Shown here piece by piece: positions 23,148 through 26,812 of a DNA stretch of 64,000 nucleotides; within the stretch, counting starts at the first letter, position 1; each line of letters begins with the position of its first letter. A program made the translations under genes and the position numbers. Location: NCBI GenBank assembly GCA_030740155.1, contig JASLXV010000023.1, positions 29,611 through 93,610 on the forward strand, read 5' to 3'. The notes under the pieces were generated by a model. It searched no databases and had not been told where the DNA came from. It saw only the letters and a program-made list of their open reading frames with translations. Origin of the DNA: Dehalococcoidia bacterium (GTDB lineage Bacteria > Chloroflexota > Dehalococcoidia > Lucifugimonadales > UBA3495).

Positions 23148-23357
23148 CCGGCATACGAGCCTGGCTGATTGCGACCGCTGGGCGGTTGGTGTTCCAGCCA
23201 GCTGAGGTGTTGCCGTCCGGAGAAACGGTGGCCGGTGTGCCGGAACGGACCTGCCGGGTTCGTCCGGCACCTGGCCGGCCCAACCTGGAGTCCGGTATTG
23301 GTAACGGCTGAGGAGCTACCCTGGGGGGAGTGAATTGGTCAGGGGTTCCCTCTAGAC

Positions 23358-23457
23358 TGTCATTCCGAGGAGCAAAGCGACGAGGAATCTGGTGCCGGGC
23401 TCCCCATTTGAAACCTGGACCCACCGCCCCAGACCCCTCGCTTCACTCGGGGTGACA
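23358..23457. repeat. MITE-like element with imperfect terminal inverted repeats
   Basis: tgtcattccgaggagcaaagcgacgaggaatct ... agacccctcgcttcactcggggtgaca. Confidence 0.65.
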
Positions 23458-23648
23458 TTGTCCAGAGTACTTTTGGGGCAAGGCCATTGGTCAGGGACAG
23501 GCGATTGTTCGAGGTTACGCCGGGATTGGGAGGAGAGGTTGTTACCCCATGATAGTGGGGCAATTCCGCGAACCAGATGGCAGTGGACGCACTCGGGATA
23601 CCGGTATGCGGTTCACGGCGTCCTAGGGCGGGGTCGCGGAAATCGAGG

Positions 23649-24035
23649 TTAGGAGTTCCAGCCCAATACGGTTGCCACTTCGTCAGGCAATTCGATGACA
23701 TCGAAAGGTTTGGGGATGAGCCAGGTGGCCCCCAATTCCCCATAAATCCGCCGGTCTTTTTCGCCGGACAAAGCGGTCATCATGATTACCGGAATGTGCC
23801 GCGTAGCTTCGTCGTGCTGGAGTTCTTGAAGGGCCGTGACACCGTCCATCTCGGGCATTGAAACATCCAGTAGGATTACGTCCGGTTGCTCTTCTTTGGC
23901 GGCCGCGAAGCCGGCAATACCGGTGTCGGCCTGTAAGACTTTCCAGCCTTTTGTAGATTCGATTCCGATCTGAATGCAATCTCTAATGATGGCCTCATCG
24001 TCGACTACCAAGACAGTCTTATCAGGTATTGACAC
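23649..24035 (-). CDS. single-domain response regulator (receiver only)
   Basis: VLVVDDE, ILLDVSMPEMDG, MTA, PKPFD. Confidence 0.9.
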   Translation of the reverse strand: MSIPDKTVLVVDDEAIIRDCIQIGIESTKGWKVLQADTGIAGFAAAKEEQPDVILLDVSMPEMDGVTALQELQHDEATRHIPVIMMTALSGEKDRRIYGELGATWLIPKPFDVIELPDEVATVLGWNS

Positions 24036-24684
24036 TATTCACCCCTAATCTTGATATGCGTCATTGCCATCCACTATTCGGATTACGACCTCGAACGCTC
24101 AGTGAACGGATTGACGGGGTCTTCCAACTCTCCCTGCTTTTTTGGCGCCTTTCCCGACTTGACATAAACATAAACCTTGATCCCGTGGCATTGTCAACGC
24201 TTCACAGGCCGAGCTAATGGCATCTTTTGGGTCGCTCCGCCCTAGTGGAAAAGCCGGACTCGATTCGTACCCCAAATCCTGACAGGCACCAGCTTCCATC
24301 TCTCTAGCCACTCCGGGAGACCTCCCCACCAGCGGTCCGGGAAGCAACTCCGCCTCGCCGTTGCCGCATATGTGCGAAACTTGAGAACCCCCCCTCCGCC
24401 TGCCCGAATTTAGCGCGTCGCCATCAATTCAGCTTCAAATGACTCGTAGACCTGATCCAAATTGAAATGCAGCCGGGCGGTTGCCTATTTCGAGACAGGT
24501 GGATACACGGAGAACAGGCTGGGGCTTTCCGGCTTTTCGGCTAGAGGGGGCCGTGGGTGGCCACTCGACGCGGTGGGCTAAGAGCAGGGCCCCGGCAGGA
24601 GCGACTCAGCTTGCGGCTCCCCGCGCCCTGCGGCTAGGCTTAGGGTGAACGGATGGTCATAAGGGCAATTTTCGATATTTGGCG

Positions 24685-25413
24685 TTAGATACCCGCACCG
24701 CGAGTAAACTCAGCCAACAGGGCTTCTTCACGCTCTGGGCGGTGGTTCGTTGCCGTTGCCTTTTGCACCACCCCAAGCTTCTCCTCGAGTTGACCTACTC
24801 GGTCCTGAAGTCTTTCGTGGCTGCGCAGTACCAGCGTGATAGCCTCCGCAACCGGATCCGGAAGGTCTGCATGGTCAAGAACGGCCATCGGGTGTGGTTT
24901 CTCTTGGACCACTTTGCCGGGGACGCCGACGACCGTCGCGAACGGAGGAACGGTTTTCACGACAACAGAGCCGGCGCCGACCTTCGCGCCATCACCCAAA
25001 ACCACTGGGCCAAGGACAGCGGATCCACCTCCCATCACAACATTGCTGCCCACGGTTGGGTGACGCTTACCCTTATCCAGCGAAGTCCCCCCCAGCACGA
25101 CTCCCTGGTACATCAAGACATCGTCGGCAATCTCCGCGGTTTCTCCGATCACGACTCCGGAGCCATGGTCGATAAAGAACCGCCGGCCGATCGTGGCCCC
25201 CGGATGTATTTCAATCCCGGTTAGAAACCGGCCGATGTGGGAAAGCAAACGGGCAAGGAAATAGATCTTGTGCCGCCACAGGTAATTCGAGACTCGGTAT
25301 ATCCACACCGCGTGGAGACCCGGATAGCAGAAGACTATCTCGAGTCTGGTCCGCGCGGCTGGGTCCATCTTGAAGACAGTTGCTATATCTTCTCTCAGTC
25401 TTCCAAACATCAC
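24685..25413 (-). CDS. cysE: serine O-acetyltransferase
   Basis: [38 protein letters not shown]. Confidence 0.96.
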
Positions 25414-25481
25414 AGGCCTGTCCTAATTGTGGTTTTACTGCTCCGGCGAAGCTTCAGACTTTATTGAGAACCAGGTTTGGA

Positions 25482-26402
25482 TTACGCGAAGAGTCCCGTG
25501 GATAGATATCGCTCCCCGGTATCGGGTGCGATCACCACGATAAGCTTGCCGGCGTTCTCCGGTCTCTTGGCAACCTGTATGGCAGACCAGACCGCGGCGC
25601 CTGAAGATATGCCTGCCAATATCCCTTCTTCTCTGGCAAGCCGCTTGGCCGTCGCCGCGGCATCTTCGTTAGATACCTGGATGATCTCGTCAATCAGGTC
25701 CGTACGGAGGACCTGCGGAACAAACCCGGCTCCTATTCCCTGTATCTTGTGGGGCCCGGGACTTCCACCGGAAAGGACCGGCGAAGCCACAGGCTCGACT
25801 GCAATAGCTTTGAAACTTGGTTTTCGCGGTTTGATTACTTCGGCAACTCCGGTTATCGTCCCGCCGGTACCCACTCCCGACACTAGGATATCCACCTGGC
25901 CATCGGTGTCGTTCCAAATCTCCTCGGCAGTGGTGAGCCGGTGAACCTCGGGGTTCGCCGGATTCATGAACTGTTGTGGCATGAAGGCGTTCGGGTCTTC
26001 TTTCACTATCTGCTCAGCCTTGCCGATGGCCCCTTTCATTCCCTCACTTCCCGGAGTCAGAACCAACTCGCAGCCAAAAGCAGCCAGGAGTTGCCGCCTT
26101 TCCTCCGTCATCGTCTCCGGCATGGTTAGAAGCAACCGGTACCCCTTGGAGGCACAGACCAGGGCCAATCCAATCCCAGTATTGCCGCTTGTCGGTTCAA
26201 CAATGACGGTGTTTGGCCCGATCAGACCGGCTTTTTCCGCCGCCGCGATCATCGACAGGCCGATTCTATCTTTGACGCTGCTGCAAGGATTGAACGATTC
26301 AAGCTTGGCCGCCACGGTGGCCGCTGCTCCGTCCAAGATGCGGTTCAATTTTACCAACGGCGTCCCACCGATCAGGCCAGTAATATCATCAGCTATTCTC
26401 AC
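25482..26402 (-). CDS. cysK: cysteine synthase A
   Basis: [47 protein letters not shown]. Confidence 0.97.
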
Positions 26403-26433
26403 GGTTGTGCCTCCTCAAAATGATCATTACGCC

Positions 26434-26462
26434 AAAAACCCCCAGTGATTTCACTGAGGGTT
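26434..26462 (-). terminator. intrinsic attenuator terminator upstream of cysK
   Basis: mRNA AACCCUCAGUG-AAAU-CACUGGGGGUU then UUU: 11-bp stem and U tract about 30 nt before the cysK start. Confidence 0.85.
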
Positions 26463-26523
26463 CTGGTCTTTTCAGCCTGGTTTTCTTTGGACAATCATTT
26501 ACAGGCGAAAGACCTCACCCTCA
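26455..26523 (-). promoter_or_regulatory. antiterminator helix, mutually exclusive with the terminator
   Basis: Leader UGAGGGU / GGUCUUU / GCCUG pairs with ACCCUCA / AAAGACC / CAGGC; ACCCUCA is the terminator's 5' arm. Confidence 0.8.
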
Positions 26524-26593
26524 AAATACAACAAGTGCAACAAGTACAACAGGTACAACAACAACCGGGGTTTCGGTCGACTTGGCTACACAT
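26495..26593 (-). CDS. cysteine-rich attenuator leader peptide MCSQVDRNPGCCCTCCTCCTCCILRVRSFACK
   Basis: Manual translation: 32 aa with 11 Cys, 9 of them within 12 codons; AAGGA SD 7 nt upstream; alternative in-frame ATG at 26620. Confidence 0.88.
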   Translation of the reverse strand: MCSQVDRNPGCCCTCCTCCTCCILRVRSFACK

Positions 26594-26629
26594 CTCGGAA
26601 TCCTTCGCGGTGATTGCCATGGCGGACAG

Positions 26630-26658
26630 AATATATCACATTCCATGACCATTGTGAA
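26630..26658 (-). promoter_or_regulatory. sigma70-type promoter of the cys leader
   Basis: TTCACA-17 nt-TATATT with extended TG. Confidence 0.6.
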
Positions 26659-26812
26659 AGTATGGTGGGGGGGCGGACCAATTGTCCGAGGTGGACTCAG
26701 CCAGTCGGAAAAGATTGGGGCAATATCAGGCGACAGTCTCGCCTTTCCGCCACAGTCTACCGCTGCTCTTTGGGCGGGCCACTTCTGCTAGCGTCTTGAT
26801 GCGCCGCCCCCC

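Follow-up and report, generated by a model that had tools for sequence, protein, structure and literature searches.

A putative cysteine-sensing transcription attenuator upstream of cysK-cysE in a Dehalococcoidia bacterium

Organization of the cysK-cysE leader

The window, a 64,000-nucleotide stretch of contig JASLXV010000023.1 from a Dehalococcoidia bacterium of the order Lucifugimonadales, carries on its minus strand a cysteine synthase gene followed by a serine O-acetyltransferase gene. Both score above the curated TIGR cut-offs, which bears out their earlier naming as cysK-cysE. They are preceded by a promoter, an open reading frame with a long run of Cys codons and two RNA pairings that exclude each other. 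In the direction of transcription the elements are as follows.

26653-26658, minus strand: -35 box TTCACA (promoter motif search)
26630-26635, minus strand: -10 box TATATT with an upstream TG, 17 nt from the -35 box
26618-26620, minus strand: alternative in-frame ATG, 9 nt past the -10 box, which would give a near-leaderless 41-aa leader
26601-26606, minus strand: SD-like GAAGGA preceding the second ATG (26593)
26495-26593, minus strand: leader ORF by translation, 32 aa counted from the second ATG
26562-26579, minus strand: 6-bp hairpin within the leader ORF (folding)
26528-26563, minus strand: Cys run, 9 Cys in 12 codons (8 UGU, 1 UGC), ORF codons 11-22
26502-26523, minus strand: antiterminator 5' strand, with the outer block at 26523-26517 and inner blocks at 26514-26508 and 26506-26502
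26455-26479, minus strand: antiterminator 3' strand, of which 26461-26455 is shared with the terminator 5' arm
26434-26460, minus strand: intrinsic terminator, 26460-26452 paired with 26447-26439, 4-nt loop, 5 U (26438-26434), -14.6 kcal/mol
26410-26416, minus strand: cysK SD GAGGAGG
25482-26402, minus strand: cysK, cysteine synthase A, 306 aa (TIGR01139, 470 bits, cut-off 351)
24685-25413, minus strand: cysE, serine O-acetyltransferase, 242 aa (TIGR01172, 234 bits, cut-off 211)

The promoter (TTCACA-17-TG-n-TATATT, 26658-26630) is of the sigma-70 type with 10 of 12 matches, in agreement with the preliminary description, and 1.2 kb of sequence held two promoter-like sites compared with 0.4 in shuffles. 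Judging from the usual -10 spacing, the transcript would start near 26623-26620. Translation likewise confirmed the 32-aa frame from 26593 to 26495 with nine Cys in codons 11-22, and no Pfam family matched this ORF. A single SD-led start had been described; the SD-like sequence and the 32-aa frame are indeed present, but the in-frame ATG at 26620 had been overlooked. The near-leaderless 41-aa version is as plausible as the SD-led one, because in a family of leaders upstream of sulfite reductase genes (see below) the ORF starts 7-10 nt past the -10 box at 30 of 30 loci. The 6-bp hairpin at 26562-26579 could possibly act as an RNA-polymerase pause hairpin. The outer antiterminator strand at 26514-26523, which codes for R-V-R, is itself SD-like and might delay the ribosome as it approaches the leader's end.

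Nine Cys in 12 codons is a rare composition: among all six-frame 12-codon windows of the 3.6-Mb genome it occurs in only two frames, the other being a repeat-like stretch on contig C67, and at least five Cys are reached in 108 frames. UGU makes up 9 of the 10 leader Cys codons compared with 19% genome-wide (1554/8025 in 1717 long ORFs), an excess with a binomial value of 3e-6, which exaggerates the case since these codons form a repeat within a low-GC stretch. The genome encodes one tRNA-Cys(GCA).

Competing helices and the modelled effect of ribosome position

The antiterminator pairs in three blocks as had been drawn (26523-26502 with 26479-26455) at -26.5 kcal/mol, with a z-score of -4.45 and none of 200 shuffles as good. 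The terminator region has a z-score of -4.89, and its value was also reached by none of 200 shuffles. An 11-bp hairpin with a U-tract had been reported here. The hairpin stands, but its core comprises 9 bp including one G-U, 11 bp being obtained only when pairing extends into the U-tract, and the tract is weak, with 5 U in 8 positions compared with 7-8 in the E. coli controls. This terminator was absent from the output of a simple terminator scan.

To model the switch, the RNA under and behind the ribosome (A-site plus 12 nt) was removed, the RNA was ended before the terminator 3' arm, and the strength with which the terminator 5' arm is held was read out in kcal/mol. In the cysK leader this sequestration amounted to 11.0 kcal/mol with the ribosome at the first Cys codon and 1.1 with the ribosome at the stop codon (3/200 shuffles). 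The corresponding E. coli values were 9.6 and 0.0 for thr (7/200), 8.4 and 0.0 for trp (0/200) and 7.3 and 0.5 for phe (5/200). Since the E. coli his (72/200) and leu (70/200) leaders fail the shuffle criterion, the test has false negatives. Folding with and without a masked ribosome footprint thus gives a contrast between stall and stop like that of thr, trp and phe, and the sequestration of the terminator 5' arm after a stall in the Cys run, as earlier proposed, is recovered. Moving the ribosome codon by codon gave a sequestration of 10.3-12.9 kcal/mol throughout codons 11-20; this dropped to 6.3 at codon 21 and to 0.2-1.1 from codon 22 on, so that the predicted switch occurs where the Cys run ends. 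With respect to both geometry and energetics, the leader matches E. coli controls run in the same script.

At equilibrium the terminator was favoured in the cysK leader and in all five E. coli controls. This preference was considered as an objection and dropped, because the controls act alike; it follows that the choice between the two helices would have to be kinetic. In untranslated nascent RNA, the antiterminator formed with a probability of 0.98, and sequestration reached 5.9 kcal/mol compared with 0.2-1.4 in the five controls. Based on this folding, no protector (1:2) helix is predicted for the cysK leader. Protector helices cause termination of untranslated leaders, and are usual in trp, his and thr leaders without being universal. 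The attenuator had been called complete, which holds for the ORF, the Cys run and both helices but not for the protector, which is not predicted, nor for the U-tract, which is short. As the antiterminator forms without translation, a start-codon knockout would be expected to read through rather than to super-attenuate. When the footprint was placed on the stop codon but the RNA 5' of it was left available for pairing, the outer block of 7-8 bp re-formed (probability 0.72; 1.9 kcal/mol) in a calculation that ignores the bulk of the ribosome.

Proposed mechanism

Taken together, the leader most probably functions as a ribosome-mediated transcription attenuator that senses Cys-tRNA ahead of cysK-cysE. 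With a ribosome stalled at Cys codons 11-19, the strand 26523-26502 would stay free to pair with 26479-26455. This antiterminator would form before the terminator 3' arm is made, and the terminator would then come too late. A ribosome that has reached codon 22 or further would cover 26523-26502, allowing the 9-bp hairpin to form and RNA polymerase to stop near 26434, while the short U-tract would leave some basal readthrough. The anatomy of the leader is evident in the sequence and switching between the two pairings is a computed result; the folding supports the earlier chain from low Cys-tRNA through stalling and the antiterminator to readthrough, from which regulation by cysteine is inferred. 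No T-box, SAM or other Rfam riboswitch matched at gathering score in the window.

Alternatively, the target of the stalled ribosome could be translation initiation, through a change in how accessible the cysK SD is, and not termination. Control of this kind, described in mycobacteria, is the sole experimentally shown Cys leader mechanism that was found in the available portions of the literature (10.1101/834739), and the weak U-tract of the cysK leader would agree with it. However, opening the cysK SD and start costs 4.6 kcal/mol whether the terminator is present or not, no leader pairing that hides the SD was found, and the switch helices end at least 18 nt before it. In addition, the leaders of the sulfite-reductase family end in a hairpin followed by 7 U in 8 positions. 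Translational control at cysK is thus very improbable, and termination at the hairpin is the reading followed here.

Further Cys leaders in the same genome

The genome was scanned for amino-acid-run ORFs with terminators. Beyond Cys leaders, no convincing His, Trp, Leu, Phe or Thr leader with a terminator was seen genome-wide. Two further Cys leaders are present on other contigs.

C99:28614-28755, plus strand: second Cys leader, a near-leaderless 27-aa ORF with 5 Cys, antiterminator and terminator
C25:122451-122594, minus strand: third Cys leader, a 19-aa ORF with 3 Cys, with terminator (match to covariance model R1, E 7e-4)

The leader on C99 has the promoter TTGACA-17-TAGACT and precedes a nitrite/sulfite reductase-family gene that is present in 195 of 203 family genomes. 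Among the best 30 loci, a promoter and a 16-27-aa ORF with 1-6 Cys occur in all 30, and a terminator of -12 kcal/mol or better in 26. Twenty-seven of these loci were aligned after removal of two that contain long insertions and of one near-duplicate. Protector and terminator are paired in 96.6% of cells compared with 48-57% in slid controls; 6 of the 12 base pairs showed changes in both partners, and the paired share was reached by none of 500 shuffles, a count that treats kin as though they were independent. The family antiterminator is paired in 83% of cells compared with 41-60% when slid, and showed no compensatory change in the 27-locus alignment.

The covariance model R1, built from this alignment, identified the leader on C25, which sits between an Rrf2-family gene and moeB-cysM. 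R1 sites occur in 18 of 150 order genomes and precede genes for sulfite reductase, moeB-cysM, PAPS reductase, a DUF4395 protein and a cysteine-dioxygenase-family protein. The Cys leader before the DUF4395 (PF14340) gene points to a sulfur-related role of that family, and Lyubetsky et al. reportedly made a Cys-leader prediction at PF14340/PF00480 genes in 2014. The cysK leader scores 10.3 bits against R1 (E 1.7) and E. coli pheL 11.8 bits; at about 10 bits, the cysK leader is not detectably a member of the sulfite-reductase/moeB family. Neither the leader on C99 nor that on C25 passed the single-sequence switch test (59 and 37/100 shuffles), the range being 37-80/100 when two family members are included, so that support for these leaders and their family is comparative. 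Together, the leaders of cysK-cysE, the sulfite reductase-type gene and moeB-cysM would form a cysteine regulon coordinated by the ribosome.

In five families of the order, the peptide motif D-D-L-F-x-L-C recurs in a total of 16 short leaders, which precede sulfite reductase (10), moeB-cysM (4), PAPS reductase (1) and a cysteine-dioxygenase-family gene (1). Its first six codons vary synonymously, and all 13 distinct codon strings use UGU for the Cys. Conservation at the level of the peptide suggests a role for the nascent chain, making this leader subfamily a candidate nascent-peptide sensor. A class-wide search for the motif at the codon level gave hits in 6 of 301 genomes and 7 control hits, with only one true leader, and the motif was not found in a literature search.

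Perhaps the whole of sulfur assimilation in this order of marine-type Chloroflexota (sulfite reductase, PAPS reductase, the cysteine synthases and cysE) is under leader-peptide attenuators, with an unrelated leader serving a foreign cysK-cysE and D-D-L-F-x-L-C acting as an arrest sensor. The single-UGU arrest motif, a sensor so far undescribed, would then have replaced the Cys run in part of the order, would sense cysteine or a sulfur metabolite, and would also serve the cysteine-dioxygenase-family gene. This joint picture is tentative, and we regard it as possible though doubtful.

Origin of the cysK-cysE cassette

The GC content of cysK and cysE is 57-58%, compared with 65-70% for the upstream genes selB and nurA. 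The NurA protein itself belongs to clusters in which Chloroflexota is the most frequent phylum. A low-GC stretch at 23200-26800 (52-58%) contains, besides the leader and both cys genes, a solitary receiver-domain gene (23649-24035); the stretch is possibly an insertion beside selB-nurA. Searches for close homologues of the cassette were negative in 60 relatives, where the best match had 50% identity; 400 order genomes, with five candidates scored in each, gave no cysK relative at E 1e-110, 202 family genomes gave no DNA match to the cassette, and nhmmer detected no close homologue of the leader among the collected loci. Different genes follow nurA in the four relatives that were inspected. The nearest CysK relatives, known as proteins alone, are 92-94% identical, and a quick tree grouped CysK with four relatives (support 98) and indicated no donor. 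The cassette was likely acquired from outside the order.

These features bear on a different explanation, in which the hairpin would terminate constitutively but leakily, or would end transcription from the upstream genes selB-nurA, the Cys run would be left over from an earlier function or have arisen by repeat slippage, and any regulation would belong to a DNA-binding protein, e.g. of the Rrf2/CymR type. At the DNA level, the Cys run repeats a 9-nt unit almost perfectly, which together with its place in a low-GC cassette lacking a close relative in the order would agree with a relic, as the Rrf2-family gene upstream of the moeB-cysM operon would with a DNA-binding regulator. However, the hairpin lies downstream of the leader promoter and 380 nt past the nurA stop codon, and a chance repeat would not account for the open frame, for an antiterminator that fits or for the two independent Cys leaders found with other sulfur genes. 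We therefore consider this explanation very improbable compared with an attenuator that reads the Cys codons.

Contigs assembled from RNA libraries match the window identically across cysK and cysE. One contig spans the terminator (26511-26359) without differences, which confirms the sequence independently and fits either readthrough or DNA. Seven of the eight RNA runs listed contain part of the stretch, and they include seawater and marine metagenomes. As ends, strand and level are not visible in assembled contigs, the missing cover of the promoter-proximal leader at high identity does not constitute a finding.

Cys leaders in other lineages and in metagenomes

In a sister genus, a Cys leader between moeB and cysM is present in 4 of 4 genomes, and all four pass the switch test (0-5/200 shuffles). 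Its antiterminator strand changes together with the terminator arm; MAFFT misregistered these stems, and pairings were taken sequence by sequence. This leader begins at the moeB stop codon. The genus also presents two tandem Cys attenuators in one operon, one before moeB (3/4) and one in the moeB-cysM gap (4/4).

At 80 named cysK loci, a clear leader with a terminator was found at four, one in Caldilineaceae and three in Syntrophales, with weaker shuffle counts of 10-27/200. The Syntrophales leaders precede metY-cysK(-metX). Within the family of the Caldilineaceae genome, a short Cys-bearing frame with a terminator-like hairpin was recognized by eye at about 15 of 24 loci, and the helices are conserved with little covariation (6 sequences). 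The leaders of this family before cysK-cysE-metY contain extra alternative helices that by eye resemble a cascade of the his-operon kind. No clear leader was present within 1.5 kb of the 30 top phylum-wide cysK loci, two of them being borderline, and a loose Cys pattern in five class genomes was uninformative.

Metagenomes were scanned for cysteine-synthase motifs preceded at 140-200 nt by three Cys codons, yielding at least 119 hits. An 11-aa Cys leader before cysK, terminator-less by the test, recurs in about 21 of the 119 matches listed. Among the matches listed, where a Cys run is present by construction and some of the other hits are partial cysK genes, a short ATG ORF accompanies 60 of 72 cysteine-synthase hits compared with 8 of 47 others, and a short ATG ORF with a terminator 19 of 72 compared with 1 of 47. 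Counted as distinct leaders, again among the matches listed, 40 of 52 lie in a short ORF and 19 have a terminator as well.

Such terminator-less cases raise the question of whether Cys leaders work through Rho-dependent termination or polymerase pausing, with the hairpin being secondary. Among the matches listed, 41 of 60 short metagenomic Cys ORFs showed no clear terminator, and Seliverstov et al. 2005, who predicted Cys leaders before cys operons in Actinobacteria, suggested Rho dependence for leaders that have no terminator (PMC1262725, available text). In the cysK leader, on the other hand, both competing helices stand far above shuffles and the switch point matches the end of the Cys run. 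A Rho- or pausing-based mechanism is therefore highly improbable at cysK-cysE, where an intrinsic terminator controlled by the translating ribosome would account for these features.

Comparison with known systems

The concept of attenuation is old, and the switch proposed here is of the textbook type. To our knowledge, textbooks do not list cysteine among the amino acids that terminator-type leader-peptide attenuators sense. The Lyubetsky group is said to have published large sets of predictions that include cysteine leaders. In a search that covered literature other than subscription papers, no report of a Cys leader attenuator in Chloroflexota or SAR202 was found. The preliminary description knew of no intrinsic-terminator Cys attenuator in Chloroflexota. 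This holds for the phylum as far as searched, but the combination of a Cys uORF and a terminator has already been predicted for Rhodobacterales cysS (PMC8632094). One supplement of that paper gave no hits, and its full motif tables, which lie outside the search, could bear on novelty. The accessible text of PMC2965389, PMC4833913 and PMC13236596 contained nothing on Cys terminators. As represented in the available portions of the published work, the translational version of Cys attenuation has been shown in mycobacteria, while the terminator version has only been predicted elsewhere. The cysK leader is distinguished by an unusually long Cys run and a clean switch geometry that fits within 230 nt. 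If the interpretation is true, the three leaders would amount to regulon-wide control by cysteine without a transcription factor, in a phylum for which no report was found.

Like thrL, trpL, hisL, pheL and leuL of E. coli, the cysK leader combines a promoter with an ORF rich in codons for the end product, and its antiterminator overlaps an intrinsic terminator before the first gene. It differs from these attenuators in that it would sense Cys, is possibly leaderless, has a tract of 5 U and has no predicted protector. A kinetic-race model of leader-peptide attenuation is set out in the available part of PMC1183508.

A close likeness in logic is uORFC-8-2, a Cys uORF with an intrinsic terminator predicted by Brewer et al. 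2021 before cysS in Rhodobacterales (PMC8632094, seen in part). Both are predictions and share Cys codons in a uORF, an intrinsic terminator and the same proposed mode of action. The alphaproteobacterial leader differs in having two tandem Cys codons and a cysteinyl-tRNA synthetase gene as its target.

That Cys-rich leaders are known in Actinobacteria, as the preliminary description had stated, is supported by two sources, each available in part (PMC1262725, 10.1101/834739). The actinobacterial leaders of PMC1262725 resemble the cysK leader in placing a Cys run before a cysteine synthase operon, but have no conserved terminator according to the portion available. Canestrari et al. demonstrated translational Cys attenuation in mycobacteria and coined the term 'ribulon' (10.1101/834739). 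Similar to the mycobacterial 'Cys ribulon', where poly-Cys sORFs stand at several sulfur or cysteine operons per genome, the genome studied here has Cys leaders at more than one such operon. The mycobacterial leaders are leaderless and sense charged tRNA-Cys, and the start of the cysK leader is possibly leaderless too. The difference lies in the output: the dissected mycobacterial locus, as described in the accessible text of 10.1101/834739, frees an SD and does so without an intrinsic terminator, whereas the cysK leader has no predicted change in SD access and instead contains a terminator/antiterminator pair.
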